DNA of 32,000 bases from Thermococcus kodakarensis KOD1. GTDB taxonomy: Archaea; Methanobacteriota_B; Thermococci; Thermococcales; Thermococcaceae. Below are positions 5,863 through 31,872 of the stretch, piece by piece (the first letter of the stretch is position 1; each line of letters opens with the position of its first letter). The notes beneath the pieces were generated by a model. The model was not told where the DNA came from. It searched no databases and saw nothing but the letters and a program-made list of their open reading frames with translations. Location: assembly GCF_000009965.1 (NCBI RefSeq), contig NC_006624.1:600001-632000 (forward strand), read 5' to 3'. Made by a program: the position numbers and the translations under genes.

Positions 5863-6753
5863 TCAGCCGAGGATTTCCCTCTTTATAACCTCGGCAATCT
5901 CAACTATGGCCTTTGAAGCCTTGGCCTCTGGGAAGGCCTCGACAACGGGCTTCAGCATGCTCATGCTCTCTGGAACGGCTCTGTCGTAGGGTATTCTTCC
6001 CAGTATCGGTATTCCTTCTTTCTCAGCCCACTCCTCAAGGCCAGTGAAGCCGGGGTTGATGTCGGCTTTGTTGATGATGAGGTAGGCCGGCTCCCTGAAG
6101 TGCTGGACGACCTTGTAGGCCCTCTGAACGTCGCTGAGCGAAGCCGGGGTAGGCTCTGCTATGAGTATGGCAACGTCTGCCCCACCGAGGCTCGCTATCA
6201 CCTGACAGCCTATTCCAGCGGCCGAATCAACTATCATGTGCTCGAGGTTGAGCTCCTTCATCAGCTTCGCGGCCCACTCCTTCTCCTCCGTGACGAGCTT
6301 TCCGCTCTCGGGCCTTCCGACGTCGAGCTGGGCCGAGATGAGCGGGAAGCCGTACTTGGTTGTCGCCTTCCTGATTACCCCTGAGCGGACTTCCTCAAGG
6401 GTTATGGTTCCGGCCACCGGGCAGACCAGGCCACAGACGTTGCAGCCCTCGCAGGTGAGCTCGTTCACGACGTAGTTGCCTTCGTCATCGATGTAGATGC
6501 ACCCGTAGGGACAGCGCTCGTAGCAGATTCCGCACCTTACGCAGCTCTCTGTGTTTATCCTGGCTATCTTGGCACCTATATGCTCCCTCTCCTCTTCCCA
6601 CTCGGTCACGCCGAGGAGCAAACCAAGGTTCGGGGCCTCAGCGTCGGCGTCAACTGCCACAAACGAGTAATCGTCCTTCAGAAGGTAGAGGAGCGAGGCC
6701 GTTATCGTGCTCTTTCCAACGCCGCCCTTACCGCTCGCTATCGCCACCTGCAT
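5863..6753 (-). CDS. MinD/ParA-superfamily P-loop ATPase with inserted 2x[4Fe-4S] ferredoxin domain (COG1149-type), copy 2
   Basis: It has a deviant Walker A SGKGGVGKST and the cluster motifs CVRCGICYERCP and CEGCNVCGLVCP. The ATG at 6753 follows GGAGGTGG, and the start overlaps the stop of copy 1 (GTGATG). Confidence 0.85.
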   Translation of the reverse strand: MQVAIASGKGGVGKSTITASLLYLLKDDYSFVAVDADAEAPNLGLLLGVTEWEEEREHIGAKIARINTESCVRCGICYERCPYGCIYIDDEGNYVVNELTCEGCNVCGLVCPVAGTITLEEVRSGVIRKATTKYGFPLISAQLDVGRPESGKLVTEEKEWAAKLMKELNLEHMIVDSAAGIGCQVIASLGGADVAILIAEPTPASLSDVQRAYKVVQHFREPAYLIINKADINPGFTGLEEWAEKEGIPILGRIPYDRAVPESMSMLKPVVEAFPEAKASKAIVEIAEVIKREILG

Positions 6754-7625
6754 CACGCACCACCTCCAAGGAACTCGGCAACCCTTTCGGCGAGGCCTTT
6801 GAATATCTCTGCCTCGGGATAGTCCGTCAGGGCTATGGGTTTTCCCTCGACGTAACTTTTGACTATGTTCTCGCTGTAGGGGATCTCAGCCACGATTTCG
6901 GCGCCGTACTTCTCCGCCAGCTCCCTGACCTTACCAACGTCTCCGAGGTCAGACCTGTTCACCACAACCCAAGTCGGGATCTTCATCAGCTTCCCGAGCT
7001 GTAGGATAAGCTCCGTGTCGTGTATGCCGAGGGGAGTGGGTTCTGTTACCGCTATGAGGAGCTTTGAGCCTTCGACTGCTTTTGAGACCGTGTTTCCAGT
7101 TCCAGCGGCCGTGTCCACCATGAGGAGACCTTCCCTGACCTCTTCGGCCCTCTTCTTCGCCGCAACCACGAGCGGCATTGACCTCTCCTCTCCCTCCCTG
7201 AGCTTCCCCGTGACGAGCGTGAAGCCGTAGGGTGTTGGGGTAACGTACGTGTGGCCTATAACTCTGAAGGCCTCTTGAATGGCCCCTGGTACAGGACAGA
7301 CTATCTCACAGGCCCTGCAGCCGGAACAGAGGGTCGGCATGAGAAAGGGCGTCCCGTCCTTCAGCGTCACTATCGCGTGCTCCTCACACACCTCGGCGCA
7401 CTTCCTGCACTTGGTGCACTTCGAGTAGTCGAAGCGCGGCATGAACTGGTTCACGGGTTCTTCGTTGGCAAGCTCAACTCCCAGAAGTATGTGGTCGTTC
7501 GGTGCCTCGACGTCAAGATCCGCCAGAGTCAGCCTGACCCCAATCTTCCTGAGCGCCACCGCGAGGTTTGTCGCGACCGTTGATTTTCCGGTTCCGCCTT
7601 TTCCACCGCTCACCGCTATCTGCAA
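6753..7625 (-). CDS. MinD/ParA-superfamily P-loop ATPase with inserted 2x[4Fe-4S] ferredoxin domain (COG1149-type), copy 1
   Basis: It has Walker A SGGKGGTGKST and the cluster motifs CTKCRKCAEVCE and CSGCRACEIVCP. The ORF runs to 7685, but a TATA-like element and GGAGGTGA lie inside that extension. A TTG at 7625 gives MQIAVSGGKGG, which parallels the paralog's MQVAIASGKGG. Confidence 0.8.
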   Translation of the reverse strand: MQIAVSGGKGGTGKSTVATNLAVALRKIGVRLTLADLDVEAPNDHILLGVELANEEPVNQFMPRFDYSKCTKCRKCAEVCEEHAIVTLKDGTPFLMPTLCSGCRACEIVCPVPGAIQEAFRVIGHTYVTPTPYGFTLVTGKLREGEERSMPLVVAAKKRAEEVREGLLMVDTAAGTGNTVSKAVEGSKLLIAVTEPTPLGIHDTELILQLGKLMKIPTWVVVNRSDLGDVGKVRELAEKYGAEIVAEIPYSENIVKSYVEGKPIALTDYPEAEIFKGLAERVAEFLGGGA

Positions 7626-7642
7626 GCTCTCACCTCCGGAAA

Positions 7643-7684
7643 TTAGGGTAGCCGAATTGGTTATAAGCTTTGTGCATACGCTCA
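7643..7684 (-). promoter_or_regulatory. Internal promoter module: TGAGCGTATGCACA operator-like element, GCTTATAAC TATA box and TTCGGCTACCCTAA iron-box-like element
   Basis: Read on the minus strand it is TAATGAGCGTATGCACAAAGCTTATAACCAATTCGGCTACCCTAATTTCCGGAGGTGAGAGCTTG. The first 28 nt match the module at 31831 in 25 of 28 positions by my manual alignment. Confidence 0.6.
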
Positions 7685-8632
7685 TTACTCCCTGCTCTTC
7701 AGCCTCCTCATGTAGAACCTCTTCCCGTTGTACTCAAGCTCTATCAACTTCCCCTCTTTCAGGAGCTTCTCAACAATGCTCCAGTCTGCGTTTGCCTTCT
7801 CCAGAAACTCCGCAACGGCGTCCTCGCGCATTGGATGGACTGAGGTTATGCTCAGCAGATCCTCCTCAACGTTACCCGTAAAGGCGAAGGCGTTCCCCTC
7901 GTAGCCGATCAGGTATTCCACGCGCTCGTCCCCAAGGATTTCGCTGAAGACCTGATATGCGTGGTTGATGACATCTTCCTTCGCAGGTTTCACCCACGGT
8001 TCCGCCGGCGGTCTCGTTGGAACGGCTATGTAGGCTTTATCCGGTTTCAGCTCCCTCAGAAATTCCGCTATCTTCTCGAACTCGTTGCCATAGTCTATCC
8101 CGTCTATCAGCATCGTCTCGGTGACTATCTTTCCCTTGAACTCCTTCCTGAACTCCAGCATGCCCTCAAGGATCTTCTCAAGGCTCAGGCTCTTGTGGGG
8201 CCTGTCAATTCTCCTCCAGAGCGGCTCACTGACAGCATCAACTTTCAGCGAGACGAAGTCAAACTTCAGAAGGTCTTCCCTGACATCTTCTCTCCAGATG
8301 AGCGAGGAGTTAGTGAGGATAGCCGGGGGGATTTCAAGGGATTTCAAAAGCTCCGCCTCCTTCCCGAGGTTTATGTCGAGCGTGGGCTCTCCATCTGGAA
8401 CGAAGGTGATGTAGTCTATCCTCTCGCTCCTCGCGAGTGCCTCCTCGACTTTCTCCTTGACTTCTCTGAAGATCAGTTCGGGCTCGTAGAAGGGCCTCCT
8501 CTTGATTTCCATTCTGAGAGTTTTCCCTATCTGACAGTAAACGCAGGCGTAGGTGCATACCTTGTCGGGGATGTTGTTCACGCCGAGGCTCCTGCCGAGC
8601 CTCCTCGAGGGGACAGGTCCAAAGGCTATCAT
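7685..8632 (-). CDS. Radical SAM protein (NifB/MoaA-related Fe-S oxidoreductase type)
   Basis: The CxxxCxxC motif occurs in CTYACVYCQIG near the N-terminus. The 315-aa ORF has GGTGGTGGT upstream of its ATG. Confidence 0.8.
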   Translation of the reverse strand: MIAFGPVPSRRLGRSLGVNNIPDKVCTYACVYCQIGKTLRMEIKRRPFYEPELIFREVKEKVEEALARSERIDYITFVPDGEPTLDINLGKEAELLKSLEIPPAILTNSSLIWREDVREDLLKFDFVSLKVDAVSEPLWRRIDRPHKSLSLEKILEGMLEFRKEFKGKIVTETMLIDGIDYGNEFEKIAEFLRELKPDKAYIAVPTRPPAEPWVKPAKEDVINHAYQVFSEILGDERVEYLIGYEGNAFAFTGNVEEDLLSITSVHPMREDAVAEFLEKANADWSIVEKLLKEGKLIELEYNGKRFYMRRLKSRE

Positions 8633-17436: not shown

Positions 17437-17883
17437 CTATGCTCTCACCTTAATCGGATTCTTTGAAACATCCTTAACAGGCAGGTAGGCTATTACTGAA
17501 AGCACCCCAAGGACGAGGTAAGTGGTCACGTCATCAAGTGGGCTCCAGCCAGCGAAGTCTTCGTTGTGAAGCAGGTACGCCTCTATTGCATCTGACCCCA
17601 TGACGAGCACCGCAATGAGTGCAAGGCCAATGCTCAGCAGTGCACCCACGTAGAGGTAGGAGACGCTCCTAAGGTCGCCCTCAACGGCCCTCTTGAGACC
17701 TGTTAGATAGACCGCGCTTATCGTGAAGAGGGCGAAGGCAGCGAAGAGGTCTCCAGTTGGAACTCCAATGACCTTGATCTCCTTTCCGAAGTAGGCGAGC
17801 ACCTCGATTATCCCACCGATGAGGTAGAGGAGGCCGAAGATCCCAGTCAGCCATTTCACCTGTCCAAGGTTTATTCTGCTCAT
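17437..17883 (-). CDS. Small polytopic membrane protein, translationally coupled to feoB
   Basis: The ORF extends to 18012, but that portion overlaps feoB. The ATG at 17883 (MSRINLGQVKWLTGIFGLLYL...) overlaps the feoB stop (ATGA). About four hydrophobic helices follow. Confidence 0.65.
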   Translation of the reverse strand: MSRINLGQVKWLTGIFGLLYLIGGIIEVLAYFGKEIKVIGVPTGDLFAAFALFTISAVYLTGLKRAVEGDLRSVSYLYVGALLSIGLALIAVLVMGSDAIEAYLLHNEDFAGWSPLDDVTTYLVLGVLSVIAYLPVKDVSKNPIKVRA

Positions 17884-19898
17884 AGGAACACACCCCCCAC
17901 CGCGACTATGAGCAGGGCCACTATGTACGCCAAGATCAGCTCGTAGGCCACCGCAAAGAGTGCCCACTTCCAGCCAGCTTCCTGCTTTATGACGGCTATA
18001 GTGGCAAGACACGGCACGTATATCAGCGAGAATGCCATGAACGCGTAGGCTGTTGCAGGGTTAAACGCTCCGCTCGCCGCCATTGCCTGTGAGATCGCCT
18101 GTTCATTATCCCCAACGCCGTAGAGTACTCCAAGTGTCCCGACCACGATCTCCTTGGCTATGAAGCCGAAGAACAGCGCCACCGCGGCCTTCCAGTCCCA
18201 GCCCATCGGCGCGAAGAGCGGCTGTAGGGCGTGCCCAAGCGAAGCCACCCAGGACTTTGCGAGCAGTTCTCCGTTCTCAAGGGCCTCTGAGCCGAGGTAT
18301 CCACTGGGTCCAGTCACTGAGAGCAGCCAGACCACGATGACGCCTGCGAAGATAACGGTTCCAGCCTTCCTGAGGAACTTCTCCGTCCTCGTCCAGGCAG
18401 TGCCAAAGATGGTTCCCCAGTTGGGCCTGTTGTATGGTGGGAGCTCCATCACGAAGTAGGAGGGCTCGCCCTTGAATATGAGCTTCCTGAAGAGCCAGGC
18501 TATGATGAGGGCGAACGCTATGCCGAGGAGGTACATGCTGGTGATTACCGTTCCTTCCCTCCCGGCGAAGAACGCTCCGGCGAAGACGGCGTATATCGGC
18601 AGCCTCGCTGGACAAGACATCAGCGGGTTCACGAGTATCGTTAGAATTCTGTCCTTCTCGTCTTCAAGGGTTCTCGTTGCCATTATTGCCGGGACGTTGC
18701 ATCCAAAGCCCATTATCATCGGGATCACGGACTTTCCATGGAGGCCGAAGTGGTGCATTACCCTGTCCATGACAAAGGCGGCCCTCGCCATGTACCCGCT
18801 GTCCTCCAGCCACGAGAACGCTAAGAACAGGAACGCTATCGGCGGCAGGAACACCAGGACGCTCCCGAGGCCGCCTATGATGCCGTCCCTGAGGAGAGAG
18901 GCTAGAGCGTCGTTCGCAACGTGTGCCCCGACTTCATCCCCGAGCCAGCTGAAGAACCAGTCTATAATATCGCTGAAGGGCGCCGAAACGTCGAAGGTGA
19001 ACTTGAAGACGGCCCACATAAGGCTGATGAAGATTGGGACTCCGAGGTATTTGTGGGTGAGAACCTCGTCCAGCATGTCGCTGAAGGTTATCCTATCCTC
19101 TTTCTTCACGATGGCCCGCTTGGCTATCTCCTCTATCAGGCCGTAGCGCTCATCCGCCAGTGCGAGCTCAACGTCCCCGTATTTCTTGTGGAGCTCTCCC
19201 GAGACGTTTATAAGCTCCCTCAGGATATCGTCCCTTAATCTGCTTTTCTCGACTATCCCCCTGGCCTCGTCATCGCCTTCGAGGAGTTTTATGGCGAGCC
19301 ACCTCGGGTTATAATTCCTTACCAGCTCGTCGTCCCGTTCGATGACCCTCATGATGCGCTCGATATAGGCTTCAAAGTTCGGGTACTCGATGGGGCGCGG
19401 CTTTCCCTTGATGGCTTCGACTATTTTTGCCTTGAGCTCCTCGATTCCCTTTCCTTCAGAGGCGACCATCGGAACTACTGGAACCCCAAGGGCCTCCTCC
19501 AGCTTCTTCGGGTCTATTTTGTAGCCCTTCTCTTCCGCGAGGTCCATCTTGTTCAGGGCCACCACGACGTTGGCTCCAATCTCGAGGAGCTGGAGCGTGA
19601 GGTAGAGGTTGCGCTCAAGGTTGGATGCATCGACGATGTCAACGACCACTCTGGGCTTCTCCTTCACTATGAAGTCCCTCGCTATCTTCTCATCAATGGA
19701 ATAGGCGGTTAGGCCGTATACACCCGGAAGATCAACGACCCTGAACTTCATCTCCTTGTATTCAAACTCTCCCTCCTTCTTCTCGACGGTAACGCCCGGC
19801 CAGTTGCCCACGTGCTGTCTAAGGCCGGTTAATGCGTTGAAGAGGGTAGTTTTACCCGCGTTTGGGTTTCCTATCAGGGCGATCACGACTTCACTCAT
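17880..19898 (-). CDS. feoB: Ferrous iron transporter FeoB
   Basis: The N-terminal G-domain has GNPNAGKTTLFNALTG, DLPG and NKMD. A large polytopic membrane domain follows. 672 aa. Confidence 0.95.
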   Translation of the reverse strand: MSEVVIALIGNPNAGKTTLFNALTGLRQHVGNWPGVTVEKKEGEFEYKEMKFRVVDLPGVYGLTAYSIDEKIARDFIVKEKPRVVVDIVDASNLERNLYLTLQLLEIGANVVVALNKMDLAEEKGYKIDPKKLEEALGVPVVPMVASEGKGIEELKAKIVEAIKGKPRPIEYPNFEAYIERIMRVIERDDELVRNYNPRWLAIKLLEGDDEARGIVEKSRLRDDILRELINVSGELHKKYGDVELALADERYGLIEEIAKRAIVKKEDRITFSDMLDEVLTHKYLGVPIFISLMWAVFKFTFDVSAPFSDIIDWFFSWLGDEVGAHVANDALASLLRDGIIGGLGSVLVFLPPIAFLFLAFSWLEDSGYMARAAFVMDRVMHHFGLHGKSVIPMIMGFGCNVPAIMATRTLEDEKDRILTILVNPLMSCPARLPIYAVFAGAFFAGREGTVITSMYLLGIAFALIIAWLFRKLIFKGEPSYFVMELPPYNRPNWGTIFGTAWTRTEKFLRKAGTVIFAGVIVVWLLSVTGPSGYLGSEALENGELLAKSWVASLGHALQPLFAPMGWDWKAAVALFFGFIAKEIVVGTLGVLYGVGDNEQAISQAMAASGAFNPATAYAFMAFSLIYVPCLATIAVIKQEAGWKWALFAVAYELILAYIVALLIVAVGGVFL

Positions 19899-20122
19899 CC
19901 TATCACCTCCACCTGAATCTTCATCGCCAGCCCCCTTCCGAGGGCGAGCTGTGTTCCCCTAACGGTTACCATCATCGGACCGGCCATTTGGTTCCTGACC
20001 ACGACTACCTCAGTGCCGGGCGACAGTCCGAGCTCCGCCAGCCTGTGGATTACTCCCCTTCCCCCGGCGATTCCCCTTATGACAGCCCTTCTGCCCTCTT
20101 CCACGAATGCCAGGGGCATCAT
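19895..20122 (-). CDS. feoA: FeoA-family protein
   Basis: 75-aa small SH3-like FeoA pattern (RLAELGLSPGTEVVVV...GPMMV). It overlaps the feoB start by 4 nt. Confidence 0.85.
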   Translation of the reverse strand: MMPLAFVEEGRRAVIRGIAGGRGVIHRLAELGLSPGTEVVVVRNQMAGPMMVTVRGTQLALGRGLAMKIQVEVIG

Positions 20123-20609: not shown

Positions 20610-20623
20610 CGTGCATATGCACG
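20610..20623. promoter_or_regulatory. Perfect 14-bp palindrome CGTGCATATGCACG, followed by GCTTAAAAGC (TATA-like)
   Basis: It has the same GTGCATATGCAC core as 25229-25242 and is related to 31834-31847 and 7671-7684. It lies about 150 nt upstream of the modA start. Confidence 0.5.
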
Positions 20624-20769: not shown

Positions 20770-21588
20770 ATGAGAGGCGTTAAAATCCTACTACTCGTCG
20801 GGGTTTTGGCTGGTATCCTCCTCGTTGCAGGATGCATCGGTTCTGAAAACGCCCCCGGGAGTTCGGAGAAAAAGCCCTTTGCGGGCCAAACGGTCGTCGT
20901 CTGCTCCGGGGCCGGCCTCATGAAGCCAATGGAGGAGCTGATAGGGATGTTCGAGAACGAGACCGGCGCCAAGGTTGAGGTCCACTACGGCGGGAGCAGC
21001 GAGATCTTCGGAATTCTTCAAACGACCTGCGGCTGCGACGTCTTCGTTCCAGGGGCGTGGTACTACACCCAGCAGGCGGCCGAGAGGGGCTACATCCTCA
21101 ACGGCACCGTGAAGAACGTCACCTACCACATCCCTGTCATAGCGGTTCCAAAGGGCAACCCGAAGGGCATTCACTCCCTCGAAGACCTCGCGAAGCCAGG
21201 AGTCAGGGTTGTCCTCGGCGACCCGAAGGCGGCCGCCATAGGGAAGGTGTCCCGGAAAGTCCTCGAAAAGAATGGCCTGTGGGAGGAAGTGAAGCCGAAC
21301 GTCGTGACTTTCACGCCGACGGTGAACCAGCTGCTCATCTACATAGCGACTGGTCAGGCGGATGCGGCAATAATCTGGGAGGACATGACGACCTGGGCGC
21401 AGTCAAAGGGCAAGATCGAGGTCGTTGAGATACCTTCGGAGCAGAACATCATCAAGACTATTCCCACGGCGGTAACGGTCTGCGCGGAGAAGGACGGCCA
21501 CCTTGAGGTTGCTAAAGCCTTCAACGGGTTCATAGCAAACCACACCGAGATCTGGGAGAAGTGGGGGTTCAGGCCATGGCGGGGCTGA
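20770..21588 (+). CDS. modA: Molybdate/tungstate ABC transporter substrate-binding lipoprotein (ModA-like)
   Basis: The ATG at 20770 follows GGTGG. The lipobox is MRGVKILLLVGVLAGILLVAGC. The pattern VVVCSGAGLMKPMEEL...VHYGGSSEIFGIL...DVFVPGA...IAVPKGNP is ModA-like. Confidence 0.75.
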   Translation: MRGVKILLLVGVLAGILLVAGCIGSENAPGSSEKKPFAGQTVVVCSGAGLMKPMEELIGMFENETGAKVEVHYGGSSEIFGILQTTCGCDVFVPGAWYYTQQAAERGYILNGTVKNVTYHIPVIAVPKGNPKGIHSLEDLAKPGVRVVLGDPKAAAIGKVSRKVLEKNGLWEEVKPNVVTFTPTVNQLLIYIATGQADAAIIWEDMTTWAQSKGKIEVVEIPSEQNIIKTIPTAVTVCAEKDGHLEVAKAFNGFIANHTEIWEKWGFRPWRG

Positions 21589-22373
21589 ACTTCAGGAGCT
21601 TGACGATTTCGGTGGCCTTCATCTTCACGTTCCTCCTTTTCGCGGCGATAGCGACACTCTTCCTCCTGCCGAAGCCCAGCGATGTGCTTGAGGCCCTGAA
21701 ATCGGAGGAGATGCTCTACTCGCTCAAACTGTCCCTGATCACGGCCTCGCTCTCGACCGTTCTCGTAATCCTCATGGGGGTACCGATAGGATACGCACTC
21801 TCACGCTTCAACTTCCCTGGAAAGAGCGCCGTCAAATCCATCTTAGACCTCCCGATGGCCTTCCCGGAGCTCGTCCTCGGTTTAGCTTTGCTCCTCCTCT
21901 TCGGCAGAACTCCTGTTGGTGAGGCCCTGAGCGACCTCGGGGTGAGGGTCGTCTTCACCAAGCTCGGCATAGTGGTCGCCCAGTTCTTCACGGCCCTGCC
22001 CTACGCCGTCAGGGTCATCTACACGACGTTTGAGGGGATAAGCCCGCGCTACGAGCTCGTCGCGAGGAGCCTCGGCTACTCCGAGTTCGAGACCTTCAGA
22101 AAGGTAACGCTCCCGATGGCGAAGAACGGACTCCTCGCCTCGACAGTCATCTCCTTCGCGCGTTCCATGGGTGCCTTCGGCGCGGTGCTGATCCTCGCGG
22201 GCGGGAGCTACATGAACACTGAGATACTGCCAGTTACGCTCTACCTGAATATCTCCTACGGCAACATCGGAATGGCAATAACGAGCGGAATCGTCCTCGT
22301 CGTCGTGTCGTTCATCGCGATACTCCTCACTGAGAGGCTGGAGGGTGGTGGAAGTGCCTCTGTTAGAGGTTGA
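21576..22373 (+). CDS. modB: Molybdate/tungstate ABC transporter permease (ModB-like)
   Basis: It is a polytopic protein with an EAA-loop-like segment ARSLGYSEFETFRKVTLP. The ATG is at 21576, with an alternative GTG at 21561. It overlaps the end of modA. Confidence 0.8.
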   Translation: MAGLNFRSLTISVAFIFTFLLFAAIATLFLLPKPSDVLEALKSEEMLYSLKLSLITASLSTVLVILMGVPIGYALSRFNFPGKSAVKSILDLPMAFPELVLGLALLLLFGRTPVGEALSDLGVRVVFTKLGIVVAQFFTALPYAVRVIYTTFEGISPRYELVARSLGYSEFETFRKVTLPMAKNGLLASTVISFARSMGAFGAVLILAGGSYMNTEILPVTLYLNISYGNIGMAITSGIVLVVVSFIAILLTERLEGGGSASVRG

Positions 22374-23409
22374 GAACCTCAGTATTGACCTTGGGGACTT
22401 CCATCTCAGGGACGTTTCGCTCTCCGTTGAAGAGAACGACTATCTGACTATAATAGGGCCAACGGGGGCTGGAAAGTCCGTCCTTCTTGAGGCCATAGCG
22501 GGCTTTTATCCGCTTCTAAAGGGAAGGGTCATACTTGAGGGCAAGGATATAACGAGGGAGCCGCCTGAGAGGAGAGGAATGAGCATCGTCTATCAGGACT
22601 ACGTTCTCTTCCCACACATGACGGTTTTCGAGAACATAGCCTTCGGCCTCAGGAAGAAGGGCCTCGTAAGGGCTGAGATCGAGAGGGAAGTAAGGCACAT
22701 AGCGGAGGAGCTCCACATAGACCACCTGCTCCACAGGAAGCCGGGGACGCTTAGCGGCGGGGAGCAACAGAGGACGGCCCTCGCGAGGGCGCTCGTCGTC
22801 AGACCAAGAGTTCTCCTCATGGACGAACCTTTTTCTGCCCTCGACTCCAAAACGCGCGAAAAGCTCCGCTCCCTCGTTAGGAATGTGATAGACGAGTACG
22901 GAACGACGGTCCTCCACGTCACCCACGACTTCGAGGACGTCTTTGCCCTGGCCAAGCACGTGGCTGTCATGAGGGACGGAAGGATAGTTCAGTTCGGCAC
23001 TCCCGAGGAAGTCTTCTCAAGGCCCGCAGACGAGTTCATCGCTGACTTCGTGAGAACCAACCTGCTCCGCGGGGAGGTCGTTGGGAAGGAGGGAGAACTC
23101 ACCGCCGTCAGGGTTGGAAACGTCATTCTTTATACCGCCGACGATGCCGAAGGAAAAGTGACTCTCTCCATTAGGCCAGAGGATATAATACTAGCGAGGG
23201 AACCAGGGGAATGCTCCGCCCAGAACGTCGTGCCAGTCCTCATCGAGTCACTGGAGAAGCGCGGCCACCTCGTCTGGCTTAGCCTATCCTCAGAGGGAGT
23301 TCCCCTCAGTGCCGTTGTAACGCCGAACGCCGCAGAGCTGCTCGGCATAAAGCCCGGCGAGAAGTTCTACGCCATGTTCAAGGCAAGTGCCCTGAGGGTG
23401 ATAAAATGA
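22345..23409 (+). CDS. modC: Molybdate/tungstate ABC transporter ATP-binding protein with C-terminal TOBE/Mop-like domain
   Basis: Walker A GPTGAGKS, signature LSGGEQQRTALARAL and Walker B LLMDEPFSALD are present. A roughly 110-aa C-terminal extension follows. The start is a GTG at 22345, with nearby alternative GTGs. Confidence 0.85.
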   Translation: MVEVPLLEVENLSIDLGDFHLRDVSLSVEENDYLTIIGPTGAGKSVLLEAIAGFYPLLKGRVILEGKDITREPPERRGMSIVYQDYVLFPHMTVFENIAFGLRKKGLVRAEIEREVRHIAEELHIDHLLHRKPGTLSGGEQQRTALARALVVRPRVLLMDEPFSALDSKTREKLRSLVRNVIDEYGTTVLHVTHDFEDVFALAKHVAVMRDGRIVQFGTPEEVFSRPADEFIADFVRTNLLRGEVVGKEGELTAVRVGNVILYTADDAEGKVTLSIRPEDIILAREPGECSAQNVVPVLIESLEKRGHLVWLSLSSEGVPLSAVVTPNAAELLGIKPGEKFYAMFKASALRVIK

Positions 23410-23820: not shown

Positions 23821-24360
23821 TCATCGAGCTCTGATTTCAAGGAACTCAACGAGGAGGTTAAAGAACCGCGTGGTTCTCCCCAAGGGAGTTATAAAGCGGT
23901 AGACCAGCAGTTCCTCCCGGATTTCTTCTCTCTGGAACTCCTTTGGTAGGCCATCAAACTTTCCGCTTCTTGAGAGCTCTTTTACAACCCTCCAGCCATC
24001 GGAAAAGAGCGCGTTGAAGTACTCCTTCAGCCACTTCTCGTCGATTCTCCTTACGAAGAGCTCCCCCTCCCTTGACAAGCGGTAGTAGGTGTGGTGCTTG
24101 TGGACTTCGAAGGCCTTCTTGAACCTCGCCTTACTTCTCTTTATCGCACTTCCAGAGTCTCGCTCCACCAGTCCAGCTTCCATCAGATCTCTTATTGCAT
24201 CTTCGATGAGAGAAAGGGGTAGCTCGCTCATTTTCACCATCATCTTGGCGTAATCCACTCCGGCTTTCTTAAGGTGGGCCAGGACGTAGAGGTGAACCGG
24301 AAGGAGTTCAAGGCCTCGGTACGAACCTGGGCGTTCTTTCTGCGTATTCCCTCCATCCAT
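23821..24360 (-). CDS. Winged-helix DNA-binding protein (DUF2250-like) with C-terminal extension
   Basis: The sequence HLYVLAHLKKAGVDYAKMMVKMSELPLSLIEDAIRDLMEAGLVERDSGSAIKR...EVHKHHTYYRLSREGE looks like a wHTH. The start is uncertain because there is a 53-nt overlap with the upstream gene. Confidence 0.55.
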   Translation of the reverse strand: MDGGNTQKERPGSYRGLELLPVHLYVLAHLKKAGVDYAKMMVKMSELPLSLIEDAIRDLMEAGLVERDSGSAIKRSKARFKKAFEVHKHHTYYRLSREGELFVRRIDEKWLKEYFNALFSDGWRVVKELSRSGKFDGLPKEFQREEIREELLVYRFITPLGRTTRFFNLLVEFLEIRAR

Positions 24361-24745
24361 CGCCGAACATCTCCTCGAGGGCTTTCTCCTCCTCGCCTAT
24401 GAACCCGAGCACGCCCGCCCAGTAAACGAGAGGAAGTAAGAGCATGAAGCCACCGAAGAGGAGAGAGAATCCCGGAATCACGAGAAAGCCCCAGATGGAG
24501 TATATCGGATGCCTCACCCTTGAGTAGCAGCCCTCCGTGAGCAGTTTCCCCTTCGAGTAAGCCCTTGAGACCTGAAGGTAGCAGAGAAACCAGAGGGAGA
24601 GGCCGAGGAATACCATCAGGAACCCAAGGACTGGAAACGCGAGAAAGCTAACCCCAAGCCTCTCGTCTAGGTAAAACGCCAGAACCGCATAGATGGAAGA
24701 AAGGAGGGCAACCTTTGGAAAGATGCCCCAGAACTTCATGTTCAC
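24308..24745 (-). CDS. Membrane methyltransferase of the ICMT/PEMT-like family
   Basis: It has four hydrophobic helices. The segments SRVRHPIYS and EEKALEEMFGDGWREYAERTPRFVP fit the isoprenylcysteine carboxyl methyltransferase-like pattern. A GTG start overlaps the upstream stop (GTGA); an alternative ATG lies two codons in. Confidence 0.65.
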   Translation of the reverse strand: MNMKFWGIFPKVALLSSIYAVLAFYLDERLGVSFLAFPVLGFLMVFLGLSLWFLCYLQVSRAYSKGKLLTEGCYSRVRHPIYSIWGFLVIPGFSLLFGGFMLLLPLVYWAGVLGFIGEEEKALEEMFGDGWREYAERTPRFVPRP

Positions 24746-25161
24746 TCCTCTATCGGCGGTTTTTCGGTCTTCTTTTTCTGCACCTGCTCCCAGAGGTCGT
24801 CGAAGTTCTCCACGACCCGCTGGAGTGCAAGGTTTAGATCCCTCGTCCTCGTGAAGAATGCCACCTTGTTGGTCTTGTCCCGGATTCTCAGGAAGTTCGG
24901 GCCCATCCTGAAAGCTGCTAAAACGTCAACGTCGAGGAGCTGGCTGACGACTGCCTTGAACTTCCTCGGGTCGCCGTGCCCCTCGTCGTGTTCTTCCTCT
25001 ATGTCTTTAGCCTTGTTGTGCCTCTTTTCGAGGAGTTTTATGCTTCCATCCTCGCAGATTTCGTAGATCGCGAAGAACTCTGAATCACCGTAGTGTGCAT
25101 CTATGAGGTGTTCATCATCTTCCATTCCGAACGCGACTTTGAGGCATCTCTTCTCAGCCAT
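24742..25161 (-). CDS. NifX/NifB-C-terminal-like (dinitrogenase FeMo-cofactor-binding fold) protein, paralog 1
   Basis: The sequence LKVAFGMEDDEHLIDAHYGDSEFFAIYEI...VDVLAAFRMGPN fits the family pattern. The ORF extends to 25212, but a TATA box (CTTATAAAAC) and AGGTGA lie inside it. The start is the ATG at 25161 (or 25167). Confidence 0.6.
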   Translation of the reverse strand: MAEKRCLKVAFGMEDDEHLIDAHYGDSEFFAIYEICEDGSIKLLEKRHNKAKDIEEEHDEGHGDPRKFKAVVSQLLDVDVLAAFRMGPNFLRIRDKTNKVAFFTRTRDLNLALQRVVENFDDLWEQVQKKKTEKPPIEE

Positions 25162-25216: not shown

Positions 25217-25228
25217 AACTTTAAATGC

Positions 25229-25242
25229 TGTGCATATGCACA
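25229..25242. promoter_or_regulatory. Perfect 14-bp palindrome TGTGCATATGCACA between divergent NifX-like genes
   Basis: It is flanked by TTTAAAT (25220-25226). It is 33 nt upstream of the ATG at 25275 and 68 nt upstream of the ATG at 25161 on the other strand. Confidence 0.6.
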
Positions 25243-25274: not shown

Positions 25275-25898
25275 ATGAGGATCGCTGTCCCGACTAACGG
25301 TGGAGGTAGAGAAGACACGGTCGCCCCGGTCTTCGCGAGGGCACCGGCATTTTACATAGCGGACGTTGACGAGAACGGGAACATCGTCAGCGAGAAGGTC
25401 ATTCAGAACAGCGCCGCAATGGCCGGCGGAGGGGCCGGACCAATGGCAGTCCAGACCCTCATCAACGAGGGCGTTGAGGCAATAATAGCTCCTCAGGTCG
25501 GCCCGAACGCACTCGGTGCCATACAGGCCGCTGGTATCAGGCTCTACCAGGTCGCTCCAGGGACACCAGTGGAGGAGGCCATAAAGAGCGTCGTGAGCGG
25601 TGAAGCGGCCCAGTTCACGGCACCCGCTCCGCAGGCTCCCGTCGCTCCAGCGGCCCCTGCAACTCCGGTAGCACCGGTGCCGCCAGCGTACGGCCCAGCC
25701 TACCCGGCTTATCCTGCCTACGGCTACGGTTTCGGCCCTGGTTGGGGCAGAGGCTGGGGCCGCGGATGGGGTAGAGGACGCGGCTTCGGCAGAGGTTGGG
25801 GCAGAGGAGGAAGAGGCTGGGGAGCGAGGCTCGGCTACTGCCCGTGGACAGGAATGCCCAGCAGGAGAACCCTCCGCCGGTATTACGGCTGGTGGTGA
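25275..25898 (+). CDS. NifX/NifB-C-terminal-like domain fused to a Pro/Ala linker and a GW/RG-repeat tail
   Basis: The ATG at 25275 follows GGAGGTGG. The N-domain reads MRIAVPTNGGG...VAPVFARAPAFYIADVDENG...EAIIAPQVGPNALGAIQAAGIRLYQ. The tail reads APAPQAPVAPAAPATPVAPVPPAYGPAYPAYPAYGYGFGPGWGRGWGRGWGRGRGFGRGWGRGGRGWG...LGYCPWTG...RRYYGWW. Confidence 0.8.
   Translation: MRIAVPTNGGGREDTVAPVFARAPAFYIADVDENGNIVSEKVIQNSAAMAGGGAGPMAVQTLINEGVEAIIAPQVGPNALGAIQAAGIRLYQVAPGTPVEEAIKSVVSGEAAQFTAPAPQAPVAPAAPATPVAPVPPAYGPAYPAYPAYGYGFGPGWGRGWGRGWGRGRGFGRGWGRGGRGWGARLGYCPWTGMPSRRTLRRYYGWW
25740..25823 (+). repeat. Coding micro-repeat (GGN-TGG-GGN-MGN units) specifying GWGRGWGRGWGRGRGFGRGWGRGGRGWG
   Basis: Read directly: GGTTGGGGCAGAGGCTGGGGCCGCGGATGGGGTAGAGGACGCGGCTTCGGCAGAGGTTGGGGCAGAGGAGGAAGAGGCTGGGGA. 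Confidence 0.85.
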
Positions 25899-25931
25899 GG
25901 CCTTTCCCTTTAACTTTTTGAGGTGCCCAAA

Positions 25932-26177
25932 ATGCCGCGCGGTTACGGAAGGGGTATGGGCAGGGGTGGAAGATTCGGCCCGTATCCACCCTATTATGGA
26001 GGCTTCTTCGGCCGTTTTGGACTCTACGGAATAATAGACCTAATCTTCCTGCTCCTGATCCTCTACCTGCTCTTCAAGCTCTTCCTAGTGGCTGCGACCT
26101 ATGTTATAGCCCTCGTGGTGCTCTACATGCTCTGGGGCTTCATAAGTCCGAGGAGAGGCCGCTGGTTCTGGCCTTAG
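25932..26177 (+). CDS. Small membrane protein with MPRG-type RG/aromatic-rich N-terminus (DUF5320-like flavour) and two TM helices
   Basis: The ATG at 25932 follows GAGGTG. The sequence is MPRGYGRGMGRGGRFGPYPPYYGGFFGRF, then the hydrophobic IIDLIFLLLILYLLFKLFLVAATYVIALVVLYMLWGF, then the tail RRGRWFWP. Confidence 0.6.
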   Translation: MPRGYGRGMGRGGRFGPYPPYYGGFFGRFGLYGIIDLIFLLLILYLLFKLFLVAATYVIALVVLYMLWGFISPRRGRWFWP

Positions 26178-26208
26178 CTCTCTTTTCCATGCTTCTTTTT
26201 CAGGCCGT

Positions 26209-29067: not shown

Positions 29068-29694
29068 TTAGTCCTTATCGTTCTTTGCCACTATGAGCCT
29101 GACCACGCCGCTGTAGTAGGCTTCCTCTTTCTCCACTTTGAAGTGCTTCCTCACGAGCTTGTGGGTGTCCCTCAGCGGGTCGTCGTCGAGGAGAGGCTTG
29201 AGAATGAGCTTCATCGGCAGGAGGAAGAGGTAATTCACCAGCTCGCTCTCACTCTTGGTGTGTTCAAGGAAAATCGCCATTCCATCGGGCTTGAGGACTC
29301 GTTTTATTTCTTCTATGGCCCTTTCCGGCTCTGGAACGGTGCAGAAGACGAAGGAAGAGACAACGGTGTCGAAGAAGTCATCAGGAAAGGGAAGGCTCTC
29401 TGCCTCGGCAACCTTGAACTTTACATCCATTCCAAGTTCTTTCGCCCTTTTCTTGGCCATCTCGAGCATTTTCTCTGAGCCGTCAATGGCGTAGAGCTCC
29501 ACGTCCTGGGGGTAGTACCTGAGGGTCTTCCCAGTTCCAACGCCTATTTCGAGCGTTTTGCCTTCCGCGAGAGAAACCGCACTCTCCCTGAGTGGATTGA
29601 AGAACCTATCAAGCGGCCTTTCAAGTAGCTCGTAAAAGCCCGCTATCCTGTCGTACTTCTCGCGGTACATAAAAGACACCGAAAGGGGGCTCAC
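29068..29694 (-). CDS. Class I SAM-dependent methyltransferase (UbiE/COQ5-like)
   Basis: Motif I is LEIGVGTGKT, and LKPDGMAIFLEH is present. It has a 4-nt overlap with the sufB/D stop. Confidence 0.8.
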   Translation of the reverse strand: MSPLSVSFMYREKYDRIAGFYELLERPLDRFFNPLRESAVSLAEGKTLEIGVGTGKTLRYYPQDVELYAIDGSEKMLEMAKKRAKELGMDVKFKVAEAESLPFPDDFFDTVVSSFVFCTVPEPERAIEEIKRVLKPDGMAIFLEHTKSESELVNYLFLLPMKLILKPLLDDDPLRDTHKLVRKHFKVEKEEAYYSGVVRLIVAKNDKD

Positions 29695-31031
29695 ATGCCC
29701 CCGCTTACAGCAAGCTCGATTATCTTCCTTATCTCAACGAGGAACTCCATCGGGATGTCCTTGAGCATCGGATCGAGGAAGCCTTTGACTATGAGCTGGG
29801 TTGCCTTCTCCTCGTCCAGTCCGCGGCTCATAAGGTAGAAGAGCTCCTCTTCCCTTATCTTGCCTATCGCCGCCTCGTGGCTGAGTTCGGCATCGTCAAC
29901 CCTGCTTATAAGCCCCGGATAGGTCTCCATAACCGCCTTGTCGCTCATGAGGAGTGCGTCACAGCTTATGTGTCCCTTCGTCTTCGGAGCGTCCGCCTCG
30001 ATGATTCCCCTCGTCACGACGGTGCTCTCGTCCATTATGACTGCCTTGCTAGCGTTGATTCCGCTCGCTCCCGGCCCCTGGAGGAACATCCTGCCGCCGA
30101 GGTCAACGTAAAAGTCCTTCTGGCCGAGGATTATGCCGTTCAGCTCGACGTGGCCGCCCTCCTCGACCCAGTAGTGTGGATCTCCTATGTTGCTCTTTCC
30201 AGAGCCGAGGGTTACCGTCGTGTTGATGAAGCGCGCGCCCCTCCCTACCTTTGCTCTCGTCATGGGCCTCGTGTGGACGTACTCCGGCCAGTTCTGGAGG
30301 ACTGTGAGCTGGGCCTTCGCCCCCTCGTGGAAGTAGGCCTCAGTCATGTCGAGATGTAGGGAGTGCTTGAGGAGTATCGGAGCGGTACAGCCCTCGATGA
30401 GGTGGAACTCGGTGTTCCTCTCGGCTATGATGATTATGTGTGGCGCCTGGGCCAGCGCACTCTCCTGGATGAGGAAGAACAGGTGCAGCGGGAAGGGAAC
30501 CTTCAAGCCTTCCTTCACGTAGAGGAATATTCCGCCGTTCCATACTGCCGTATGATAGGCAGTAAGCTTGCTCTCGTCTGCGCGGAAGAGCTTGAGGAAG
30601 TGCTGCTTGACTATGTCGGGGTATTTTCTAACGGCCTCCTCCGTCGGGAGGACTATGAGGCCCTTCTTGGCCCAGTCCTGCAGGAACTGGTTGTATATGA
30701 CGCCCGTGTCCGTCTGAACCGCAAGCCCGGCTATGTACTTCTGCTCCACCTCGCTTATGCCCAGCCTGTCGAGGAGGGCCTTCATCTCTGGCGGGAGGTC
30801 GTCGAGGCTCTCTATATGGTCGGGAAGGCCTTTTACCTCTGGTTTGGCTATGAAGTGAAGGAGCTGCTCCTCGCTTATGACAGGGTCTTTGTGAGGTGCC
30901 CTCTCAAAGGCTTCCAGCGCCTTGTACCTTATCTTTGTCATCCACTCCGGCTCTTTGTTCCTCCTTGCGAGCTCTTCAATCTGGTTCTCGATGATGGCCT
31001 TTGCATCGGCCATTGTTATAGTTTCAGTCAT
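29691..31031 (-). CDS. sufB: Fe-S cluster assembly scaffold protein SufB/SufD family
   Basis: 446 aa. The C-terminus DDAELSHEAAIGKIREEELFYLMSRGLDEEKATQLIVKGF is the classic SufB/D ending. It overlaps the sufC stop by 4 nt. Confidence 0.85.
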   Translation of the reverse strand: MTETITMADAKAIIENQIEELARRNKEPEWMTKIRYKALEAFERAPHKDPVISEEQLLHFIAKPEVKGLPDHIESLDDLPPEMKALLDRLGISEVEQKYIAGLAVQTDTGVIYNQFLQDWAKKGLIVLPTEEAVRKYPDIVKQHFLKLFRADESKLTAYHTAVWNGGIFLYVKEGLKVPFPLHLFFLIQESALAQAPHIIIIAERNTEFHLIEGCTAPILLKHSLHLDMTEAYFHEGAKAQLTVLQNWPEYVHTRPMTRAKVGRGARFINTTVTLGSGKSNIGDPHYWVEEGGHVELNGIILGQKDFYVDLGGRMFLQGPGASGINASKAVIMDESTVVTRGIIEADAPKTKGHISCDALLMSDKAVMETYPGLISRVDDAELSHEAAIGKIREEELFYLMSRGLDEEKATQLIVKGFLDPMLKDIPMEFLVEIRKIIELAVSGGM

Positions 31032-31768
31032 GCTCCCACCTCCTCGAATATCCTGGCAAACCCTTCGCGGTCTATCTGGTCAACGAGCTCGCCGGAGCCG
31101 GTCTTGACGATCCTGCCGTCCTTCATGACGTGAACCGTGAGCTTCTCCCTGTCGAGGTGGCCGAGGATTCTGCCGTAGTGTGTGATGAGGAGTATCGCCG
31201 TCCCGCGCTGGTGGAGCTCCTCTATCTTCCTGCTGATTATGCTGAGGGAATCCACATCAACGCCACTGTCCGGCTCATCCAAAATGAGAAGCTTCGGCTC
31301 GATGAGAAGTGCCTGAAGTAGCTCAAGCCTCTTCCTCTCACCACCGGAGAAGCCAACGTTCACGTAGCGGTGAAGGTCTTCCTCCTTGAACCAGAGCTCC
31401 TTGGCCTTTTCAACTACGAGATCGTAGGCCTCAGCGGGGTCCATTCCCTTCAGCTCCACGAGCACCTGCTGGAGGAACTCTATGACCTTAACTCCTTCGA
31501 CCTCGGGTGGAACCTGAAACGCGAGCAGAATCCCCCTCTTCGCCCTCTCGTCGGGACCGAGTTCGGTGATGTCTTCCCCCTCGAAGAGGATTTTTCCATC
31601 GGTAACTCTGTACTTGGGATGACCCGCTATCGTCAGGGCCAGCGTTGACTTTCCTGAGCCGTTCGGCCCCATGATTACATGAAACTCACCCGGGTTAACT
31701 TCAAGATCTACGCCCCTTAGAATCTCCTTGTCCTCAACTGAGACGTGAAGGTTCTCAACTTTGAGCAT
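31028..31768 (-). CDS. sufC: Fe-S cluster assembly ATPase SufC
   Basis: Walker A GPNGSGKSTL, signature FSGGERKRLELLQ, Walker B LILDEPDSGVD and H-loop ITHY. The ATG at 31768 (MLKVENLHV) follows GGAGGTGA. The ORF-track start at 31846 includes the promoter. Confidence 0.9.
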   Translation of the reverse strand: MLKVENLHVSVEDKEILRGVDLEVNPGEFHVIMGPNGSGKSTLALTIAGHPKYRVTDGKILFEGEDITELGPDERAKRGILLAFQVPPEVEGVKVIEFLQQVLVELKGMDPAEAYDLVVEKAKELWFKEEDLHRYVNVGFSGGERKRLELLQALLIEPKLLILDEPDSGVDVDSLSIISRKIEELHQRGTAILLITHYGRILGHLDREKLTVHVMKDGRIVKTGSGELVDQIDREGFARIFEEVGA

Positions 31769-31833
31769 TCGCTCACCTCCGTGGGTAACGTTGATGGGAC
31801 GTTTTTTAAGCATTTTGGAACAGACTTGTGTAA

Positions 31834-31872
31834 TGAGCATATGCACAAGGCTTTTAACTTAGGCTTTCCTAA
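31834..31872 (+). promoter_or_regulatory. Promoter module: TGAGCATATGCACA operator-like element, GCTTTTAAC TATA box and TTAGGCTTTCCTAA iron-box-like element (31859-31872)
   Basis: The sequence is TAATGAGCATATGCACAAGGCTTTTAACTTAGGCTTTCCTAACTCCGATGGAGGTGAAGGACATG. It is a twin of the 7643-7684 module. Its box and downstream part also resemble the radical-SAM promoter (TTAGGCTAACCTAACTCCGGTGGTGGT). Confidence 0.6.

Follow-up and report, generated by a model that had tools for sequence, protein, structure and literature searches.

The issA locus of Thermococcus kodakarensis

A 32,000-nucleotide stretch of the Thermococcus kodakarensis KOD1 genome (NC_006624.1, positions 600,001 to 632,000), here called the window and numbered from its first nucleotide, carries the two adjoining forward-strand genes that are the subject of this study: issA, encoding a 207-residue protein with a NifX-type domain and a low-complexity tail rich in Arg-Gly (RG) dipeptides, and a small gene that encodes an 81-residue membrane protein. 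Both open reading frames (ORFs) had been picked out in an earlier note made from the DNA letters and the translations, and we find their coordinates, their sequences, and the 33-nucleotide (nt) gap between them as described there. The best explanation of the locus as a whole, to which we assign a probability of roughly 0.7, is that the first gene is an ortholog of Pyrococcus furiosus IssA and the second a membrane accessory gene linked to it. The features of the locus and of the rest of the window are collected in Table 1.

Table 1. Features of the issA locus and its surroundings, with positions counted in the window
Feature	Position (nt)	Strand	Remarks
issA promoter core	25219-25241	+	TATA-like CTTTAAAT (25219-25226), 3 nt, perfect palindrome GTGCATATGCAC (25230-25241)
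issA	25275-25898	+	ATG 25275, stop codon 25896-25898
NifX-type domain (IPR003731/PF02579)	25275-25604	+	Residues 1-110; isoelectric point (pI) 4.5
Pro/Ala-rich linker	25605-25712	+	Residues 111-146; 11 Pro in 36 residues, zero charged residues
Cationic, aromatic, Gly-rich tail	25713-25895	+	Residues 147-207
GW/RG run of the tail	25740-25823	+	Residues 156-183; GWGRGWGRGWGRGRGFGRGWGRGGRGWG
Invariant tail core	25818-25868	+	Residues 182-198; WGARLGYCPWTGMPSRR
Small membrane gene	25932-26177	+	81 residues
RG/aromatic head of small protein	25932-26024	+	Residues 1-31
Hydrophobic stretch of small protein	26025-26144	+	Residues 32-71; 40 residues, uninterrupted
Basic-aromatic end of small protein	26145-26174	+	SPRRGRWFWP
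Terminator-like hairpin, then T runs	26155-26200	+	3' of the small ORF; T runs 26183-26186 and 26196-26200; consensus match only
Second NifX-like gene	24742-25161	-	Acidic, without RG tail, EEEHDEGHGD insert; PF02579 E 7.5e-13
ICMT-like membrane methyltransferase gene	24308-24745	-	145 residues; ICMT/PEMT matches below the Pfam cut-off
DUF2250 winged-helix protein gene	23821-24360	-	Pfam E 7.6e-35
Wtp/Mod-type ABC transporter genes	about 20800-23409		Tungstate/molybdate-type
Palindrome copy	20611-20622		Between feoA and the Wtp/Mod binding-protein gene
FeoAB	17880-20122
Fe-type ABC transporter	from 11288
Two MinD-Fer4 genes and a radical SAM gene	5863-8632
SufBD/SufC	29691-31846	-
Palindrome copy	31835-31846		One mismatch; between sufC and the NifX2 gene
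NifX2, third NifX-like gene	31893 (ATG)-32000	+	RG-tailed paralog, cut by the window end

The first gene encodes an IssA-type protein

The N-terminal domain matches the Pfam family Nitro_FeMo-Co (PF02579) over residues 13 to 106 (E 4.4e-21), which bears out the earlier reading of a NifX-like domain joined to a low-complexity tail. AlphaFold2 models this domain with a predicted local distance difference test score (pLDDT) of about 95, and the nearest solved structures are MTH1175 (1eo1), TM1290 (1rdu), and ORP (2wfb). Beyond the linker, PAY/GYG repeats lead into the GW/RG run and then into the invariant core, which holds the sole Cys of the protein; the C terminus reads ARLGYCPWTGMPSRRTLRRYYGWW and its last residues are RRYYGWW. 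Arg and Gly together make up 54% of the tail and aromatic residues 25%, and the region from residue 110 has a pI of 11.2. The tail is predicted to be disordered (pLDDT 42 to 54), and these scores lend no support to its folding back onto the NifX domain.

Among the 79 window ORFs of at least 60 residues, RG/GR dipeptides are densest in the issA product and the small ORF, with 14 and 7 per 30 residues where all others reach at most 4. At the DNA level the repetition is weak: Tandem Repeats Finder reported only a 12-bp unit in three copies with 75% match, so the repetition is held at the protein level and shows no recent expansion. We accordingly rejected recent DNA repeat expansion as the source of the tail, since the codons have diverged as well. 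No canonical G-quadruplex was found in the RG-coding DNA with one fixed-spacing pattern. Queried with nothing but the tail, a word-indexed protein search gave just three matches, because the tail is of low complexity.

A search of 5.8 billion proteins with the NifX-type protein recovered 175 relatives, nearly all the strong ones being full-length proteins of about 175 to 225 residues from Thermococcus, Palaeococcus, and Pyrococcus that have the tail in common. The P. furiosus relative P0083 is 61% identical to the window protein over 100% coverage (E 3e-64). Published IssA (PF2025, originally SipA; UniProt Q8TZG9) has 179 residues and a mass of 19 kDa, with a 109-residue IPR003731 domain and a 70-residue tail that holds the sole Cys; a Pro-rich linker is likewise described, and the tail counts 11 Pro (9 within 23 residues), 7 cationic, 14 aromatic, and 15 Gly residues, with a pI of 10.7 (Vaccaro et al. 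2017; PMC5524996). P0083 matches every published number, including length, mass, 1 Cys, and 4 Met, and is therefore IssA, which makes the window gene an issA ortholog; its promoter and operator layout is also that of P. furiosus issA. From homology, we identify the window gene with high confidence as the Thermococcus ortholog of IssA/SipA. In the earlier note the protein had not been recognized as IssA/SipA; its striking tail is already in the literature, together with a proposed ligand, anionic thioferrate.

The conservation of the tail was counted over 115 aligned homolog clusters. The motif GYCP.TG is present, with the tail in frame, in 83 of them and has the exact form GYCPWTG in 74; 80 of the 83 have a single Cys, and the C terminus is GWW in 73 clusters. 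Tails contain 6 to 18 RG dipeptides and are 66 to 115 residues long, so that the repeat count drifts around a fixed core motif and C-terminal end. The authors of the IssA study had themselves remarked on the conservation of the tail sequence within Thermococcales (PMC5524996).

In the published work issA is the most strongly elemental sulfur (S0)-induced gene, with induction only when iron is sufficient, and the P. furiosus protein purifies as sodium dodecyl sulfate-insoluble particles of 20 to 300 nm with about 38 Fe per monomer, in which, in native P. furiosus preparations, IssA is the sole protein (PMC5524996). Iron and sulfur are held as linear anionic thioferrate, (FeS2-)n, and in vitro IssA can restore the ferredoxin [4Fe-4S] cluster; the apo form is monomeric and oligomerizes only with Fe-S bound (PMC5524996). 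About one Zn per monomer is reported as well. In the published model nucleation or binding of the Fe-S polymer falls to the acidic NifX-type domain, and the disordered cationic, aromatic, Gly-rich tail is proposed to neutralize and wrap the polyanion and to drive assembly (PMC5524996). The self-association suggested in the earlier note is thus real for the family, as nanoparticle formation. The Palaeococcus pacificus ortholog PAP_06520 (P0080) is the top S0-induced gene of that species, and induction by S0 or sulfide under sufficient iron is on record for PF2025, TON_0919, and PAP_06520. In T. onnurineus, TON_0919 (SipA) and the NifX-like TON_0921, taken by its position as NifX2, were both detected on sulfur only. 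By analogy with the P. furiosus ortholog, we infer that the Thermococcus protein would likewise bind thioferrate and form particles of 20 to 300 nm.

A conserved small membrane protein gene follows issA

In the spacer between the two ORFs (25899-25931) a T5 tract (25915-25919) is followed directly by the Shine-Dalgarno site GAGGTG (25920-25925). The protein encoded downstream begins MPRGYGRGMGRGGRFG, ends RRGRWFWP, and has a pI of 10.5. Two transmembrane helices had been proposed for it; the hydrophobic membrane stretch is there, and in the AlphaFold2 model it forms one 40-residue helix (residues 32 to 71, pLDDT 89 to 96); it might also form a tight hairpin that would leave both basic ends cytoplasmic.

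The ORF shows the marks of a genuine gene. The ratio of nonsynonymous to synonymous substitution rates was 0.10 to 0.20 in seven of eight close ortholog pairs and 0.54 in the eighth, a near-identical pair, and GGAGG or GAGGTG stands 5 to 10 nt upstream of the start in nearly all orthologs. A hidden Markov model (HMM) built from 40 members recognized the protein in 24 of the fetched loci (E ≤2e-18), the best match after these being at 0.69; the family is narrow, since clustering of 1.84 billion representatives at 50% identity puts it in 13 clusters. Its members keep an N-terminal MPRGxGRGxGR followed by a variable Tyr/Phe/Gly spacer, a hydrophobic core in which D36, Y45, K49, and Y57 are conserved, frequently together with a mid-helix Pro-Tyr, and the basic-aromatic end. 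The protein belongs to no Pfam or NCBIfam family, public records call it a hypothetical protein, and the gene is, as far as could be found, unstudied. The exact sequences of IssA and of the small protein had no match in a collection of 15 billion proteins.

We also considered whether the small ORF is SipB (PF2026/TON_0916), the known partner induced together with SipA, and rejected this, since SipB is a fragment of a MinD/CbiA-type ATPase, annotated as an ATPase C-terminus; in P. furiosus, SipB-type fragments lie divergent from issA, and the locus has no homolog of the small ORF.

In composition the head of the small protein is close to the IssA tail: Arg plus Gly 52% and 54%, respectively, aromatic residues 26% and 25%, and zero acidic residues in both. 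The match between the two seen in the earlier note therefore holds for composition and fails for homology, which we rejected because hhalign aligned only 4 to 7 columns at about 26% probability.

The small gene is linked to the tail module of IssA

The small gene lies 30 to 68 nt 3' of issA in 19 of 23 Thermococcales loci, the spacer has a T4 to T6 tract in 17 of 18 loci, and a Shine-Dalgarno site is present in nearly all. The converse was examined by searching metagenome contigs with the small protein, which gave 30 loci, 26 of them with enough upstream DNA; some of these contigs had already supplied metagenome-assembled genome (MAG) loci, which leaves the two tests not wholly independent. 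A GYCP.TG ORF lay directly upstream on the same strand in 25 of the 26, and the remaining locus is the L001 contig, where IssA has the mutated motif GYCPEPG. The fusion of domain and tail and the adjacent small ORF, as described in the earlier note, are in this way kept in relatives. A tail missing or out of frame in close relatives would by that note have spoken against its reading, and the 83 clusters with the tail in frame show the reverse.

In five loci of the archaeal DHVE2/Aciduliprofundum group the small gene stands directly before a gene for a free-standing GYCPWTG protein. At least one of them, L030, has a tight four-gene operon of an RG-rich protein, the small membrane protein, a GYCPWTG-coiled coil protein, and a NifX-coiled coil protein, with gaps of 0 to 6 nt or overlaps. 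The link is therefore to the tail module and survives changes of gene order and architecture. Judged from its substitution pattern and gene context, the small ORF is a selected, narrowly distributed membrane protein gene that is genomically locked to the IssA tail module, and ORF 25932-26177 is most probably a real, issA-linked accessory gene.

In DHVE2 genomes an RG-rich ORF precedes the small ORF in frame, with a single TGA between the two (L029:3144-3578, L030:3162-3611, L031:64-411, L032:3174-3626); all four RG-rich ORFs end in GGRW or GGNW, and those of L029, L030, and L032 start MPxGDCTGP. As read from the translation, the junction seems to unite a Shine-Dalgarno-like GGTG with stop and start codons, an arrangement suggestive of translational coupling. 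Readthrough of the stop codon, which would yield a membrane protein with a long head in DHVE2, is possible.

The model organism P. furiosus departs from the common arrangement. In strain COM1 (L033:8541-9950, also L034) an IS605-type TnpB/OrfB gene and a resolvase-type gene lie 157 nt after issA, and the MinD-Fer4 genes on the opposite side of issA are fragmented, SipB being one fragment. By these signs the P. furiosus issA locus seems to have undergone rearrangement.

The tail is homologous to proteins of the DUF5320 family

The earlier note had drawn attention to DUF5320 (PF17253). A direct HMM scan with this family gave zero matches, even at E ≤10, to the IssA tail, full-length IssA, or the small ORF, and on this ground we rejected membership of either window protein. 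The lead nevertheless has substance for the tail, though not for the small ORF. Loci fetched from Thermoplasmata, DHVE2/Aciduliprofundum, and WOR-3 genomes with IssA as the query contain free-standing small GYCPWTG proteins. In these, GW/RG repeats are combined with the invariant core G.GA.LGYCPWTG.P..GW.RW and a region rich in Tyr and Pro, and the C terminus is usually a coiled coil. Three of them pass PF17253 (gathering threshold 27 bits) with scores of 34.4, 32.0, and 30.2 bits, their matches extending over nearly all of the profile (positions 1-99, 12-99, and 17-99), and the Thermococcales IssA tails align with the free-standing proteins in hhalign at 99.6% probability (E 1.2e-23, 42 columns). 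The close IssA-like metagenome proteins P0100, P0102, and P0105 combine a NifX domain with an RG region and coiled coil that likewise pass DUF5320. These proteins and the free-standing members end in heptad-like stretches, for example ...LEERLKEIEKRLKELK; the window tail ends RRYYGWW, without a coiled coil. From the alignment and the family matches it follows that the IssA tail corresponds to the N-terminal module of a DUF5320 subfamily, with the coiled coil lost. The small ORF is no member: against the GYCPWTG/DUF5320 set, hhalign gave 4 columns at 27% probability. A literature search found no functional paper on DUF5320.

In DHVE2/Aciduliprofundum (L027-L032, e.g. L030:3153-4492) the NifX protein has no RG tail and ends in a coiled coil, ...EEEIRMLEEEKxYIEERLEEIKKRLKELK, that closely resembles the ...DEKTxLENEAxxLEERLKEIExRLKELK of the adjoining GYCPWTG protein. 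We infer that this pair would be a split IssA, its halves joined via the coiled coils.

A conserved palindrome marks the issA promoter

The sequence before the issA start codon is GGAGGTGG. Upstream of issA the layout CCGAAAAnTTTAAAT-N3-GTGCATATGCAC-AAAATAAT is conserved in 20 Thermococcales loci, with the exact palindrome 20 to 50 bp upstream of the gene in 20 of 20 (L001-L015, L033-L035, L037, L038). The window has three copies, one with a mismatch, where 0.01 would be expected by chance, and in Pyrococcus yayanosii a second copy precedes NifX2. From this distribution, the palindrome is probably the operator of an Fe/S-responsive regulator; a literature search on it found no paper. Literature searches on DUF134 together with NifX, on PF02579 in Thermococcus, and on TON_0920 likewise gave no relevant result.

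Gene neighborhood

Judged by its gene content (two MinD-Fer4 genes, an Fe-type ABC transporter, FeoAB, SufBD/SufC, three NifX paralogs, and IssA), the whole window, 1-32000, is an iron/sulfur island; an ABC-2 exporter gene is also present. The acidic NifX, ICMT-like, and DUF2250 genes overlap and form an operon (23821-25161, reverse strand) divergent from issA. The acidic paralog is also found near issA in T. alcaliphilus and T. siculi, and in T. siculi (L035:4153-5481) the whole trio is near issA with its order kept. NifX2, a paralog with a C-terminal GMGRGMGRGRG...W tail, lies here 5.7 kb downstream of the small ORF and adjoins sufCBD; in most other Thermococcales loci (L001-L015) it comes directly after the small ORF.

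Because a Wtp/Mod-type ABC transporter adjoins the locus, we considered tungstate binding by the Arg-rich tail. We rejected the connection as coincidental, since the adjacency is missing in P. furiosus, T. siculi, P. yayanosii, T. alcaliphilus, and Pa. pacificus.

MPxG/RG-rich N termini also occur on unrelated proteins of these clusters (L012:8144-8512, L014:7669-8037, L022:4537-5065, and others), among them DUF134 regulators (MPWGMGRGRGRGRRRK...), a PF04060 'FeS' protein (MMRGIGRGNGKGNGRGRGY...), and a zinc-ribbon protein (MFRGRGAGQGRGR...). An RG tag common to cluster proteins could point to a shared ligand or to co-assembly.

A possible role at the membrane and its alternatives

How the two products might work together can be sketched. 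The small ORF would be co-transcribed with issA at a lower level, because the T5 tract precedes its own Shine-Dalgarno site; the tract would act as a partial terminator, and lower expression would fit a sub-stoichiometric anchor. The 40-residue hydrophobic helix would hold the protein in the membrane and display the RG/aromatic peptide, similar to the IssA tail, and the basic-aromatic C-terminal end at the cytoplasmic face. Since the chemistry is that of the tail, the small protein could bind thioferrate or join the tail network, and IssA-thioferrate particles would be tethered or nucleated at the membrane, where Fe2+ (through FeoB) and sulfide arise. On sequence grounds we offer this tethering or nucleating role tentatively, and would expect the small protein to be an accessory part that is not required.

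Several observations weigh against this picture. The small gene is not next to issA in P. furiosus, Pa. pacificus, or one MAG, even though IssA forms homomeric particles in the first of these and issA is strongly induced in the second. The RG head of the small protein is brief and varies among orthologs, some of which have just one or two RG units, and it is not homologous to the tail; the basic flanks may be positive-inside topology signals only, and the protein may span the membrane once or as a hairpin. The small protein, whose gene would by position be TON_0920, between TON_0919 and TON_0921, is also absent from the T. onnurineus sulfur proteome tables, although such an absence is unsurprising for a hydrophobic 9-kDa protein. 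The role of IssA itself is debated: thioferrate-like iron is still formed in cells without IssA, and detoxification, as opposed to storage, has been suggested (PMC8219758).

The earlier note had suggested direct cation-pi docking of the two low-complexity segments, so that the membrane protein would be a dedicated, mineral-independent receptor for the NifX-like carrier. The similar Arg/Gly/aromatic composition, the strict adjacency of the genes, and the likeness of the ends (RRYYGWW in IssA, RRYYGRRW and RRYYGRWR in the DHVE2 small proteins) speak for it. Both segments, however, are strongly cationic and without acidic residues, so that mutual repulsion would be expected in the absence of a bridging polyanion, they have no common motif and are not homologous, and apo-IssA is monomeric, forming oligomers only with Fe-S bound (PMC5524996). 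Nor is docking to a membrane protein obligatory, because P. furiosus makes homomeric particles with no small gene next to issA. We consider docking quite unlikely as a mineral-independent mechanism, and docking without a bridging anion the less likely form of contact. A real gene of the issA operon with another job, such as export or import of Fe/S species, regulation of a transporter, or stabilization of the membrane under sulfide stress, is a fairly improbable alternative. Here the basic ends would be topology signals and nothing else, as in many small hydrophobic proteins with basic flanks, and the widely varying RG content of the head and the hydrophobic core as the most conserved part (D36, Y45, K49, Y57) speak for this; the linkage across two archaeal orders, however, is specifically to the GYCPWTG tail module and not to transporters, and the N-terminal MPRGxGRG motif is kept in almost all members.

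Two further readings concern the low-complexity sequence itself. RG/aromatic modules can be imagined to bind nucleic acids, for example G-quadruplexes, or to form RGG-type condensates like eukaryotic RGG proteins, in place of binding an inorganic polyanion. A survey of archaeal G-quadruplex-binding motifs flagged Methanosarcina mazei DUF5320 and DUF134 proteins by their RG motifs (PMC7565180), and the DUF134 regulators of these clusters also start MPxGxGRGRGRG. We regard this as very improbable, given that the native particle is loaded with Fe/S at about 38 Fe per monomer and has IssA as its sole protein (PMC5524996) and that regulation and gene neighborhood are all related to Fe/S. Finally, the tail could be a functionless local repeat expansion and the small ORF a chance ORF, which the variable repeat number (6 to 18 RG dipeptides in tails of 66 to 115 residues) might suggest. 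The in-frame tail with its invariant GYCP.TG core in 83 clusters, the diverged codons, and the purifying selection on a small ORF present in 24 loci leave this reading a negligible probability.

An ortholog of IssA with a linked membrane accessory accounts best for these observations, and a wider scheme suggests itself. IssA may be one form of a modular system made up of a NifX-type domain, a DUF5320-type RG/GYCPWTG module that binds an anionic iron-sulfide polymer, and a small membrane protein that anchors or seeds particles. The first two parts are fused in Thermococcales and separate genes in DHVE2, where matching coiled coils would join their products, and the membrane protein would make the store membrane-associated in most Thermococcales, unlike in P. 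furiosus. We consider this scheme possible and hold it loosely. If it is true, DUF5320, which is widespread in anaerobes, would get its first functional assignment, the binding of thioferrate or other Fe-S polyanions; the homology between the tail and DUF5320 gives a ligand hypothesis for an uncharacterized family common in anaerobes.

To our knowledge, IssA is the sole biological iron store known to take the form of an iron-sulfide polymer. Since P. furiosus is without the small gene kept in most Thermococcales, a conserved accessory part may have been missed. The small membrane gene, the homology of the IssA tail to DUF5320, and the split NifX and tail genes next to the small gene in DHVE2 appear to be unreported. 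With the IssA tail already published, the remaining interest lies, as a matter of comparative genomics, in the accessory gene, the tail/DUF5320 homology with its split form, and the conserved operator.

Comparison with known systems

The closest counterpart is P. furiosus IssA, which has in common with the window protein the NifX-type domain, the Pro-rich linker, a cationic tail rich in aromatic residues and Gly whose one Cys lies in LGYCPWTGMPSRR, the YYGWW end, the promoter with the GTGCATATGCAC palindrome, and an Fe/S neighborhood of MinD-Fer4 'SipB'-type genes, Suf genes, and NifX paralogs. The window protein differs in being longer (207 and 179 residues), with a longer linker and more GW/RG units, and in being followed by the small membrane gene, which is not at the P. 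furiosus locus; its function is presumed from orthology. The fold of the IssA N terminus is also that of NifX, NafY, the NifB C-terminal domain, ORP (2wfb), MTH1175 (1eo1), and TM1290 (1rdu), the PF02579 cluster carriers, which bind anionic clusters of the Fe-S or Mo-S type with less than a complete set of Cys ligands. Unlike these carriers, which have no RG tail, IssA is a mineral-like polymer store and not a carrier of single clusters, and its locus has no nitrogenase context.

DUF5320 (PF17253) comprises uncharacterized small RG-rich proteins of anaerobes with a C-terminal coiled coil. The likeness lies in the IssA tail, which is homologous to the N-terminal RG and GYCPWTG part of family-positive proteins, and in the neighborhood with NifX-like, MinD-Fer4, and DUF134 genes. 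The small ORF has only the MPRG/RG start in common with the family and is a membrane protein, unlike DUF5320 proteins.

Magnetosome proteins of the Mms6/MamC type are small membrane proteins that organize iron minerals at membranes. By analogy, the small protein combines a short membrane anchor with a charged low-complexity peptide that may face an iron mineral. There is no sequence relation between the two, and the chemistry is reversed: in magnetosomes an acidic peptide faces an oxide within a vesicle, whereas the small protein would present a basic peptide to an anionic iron sulfide in the cytoplasm.

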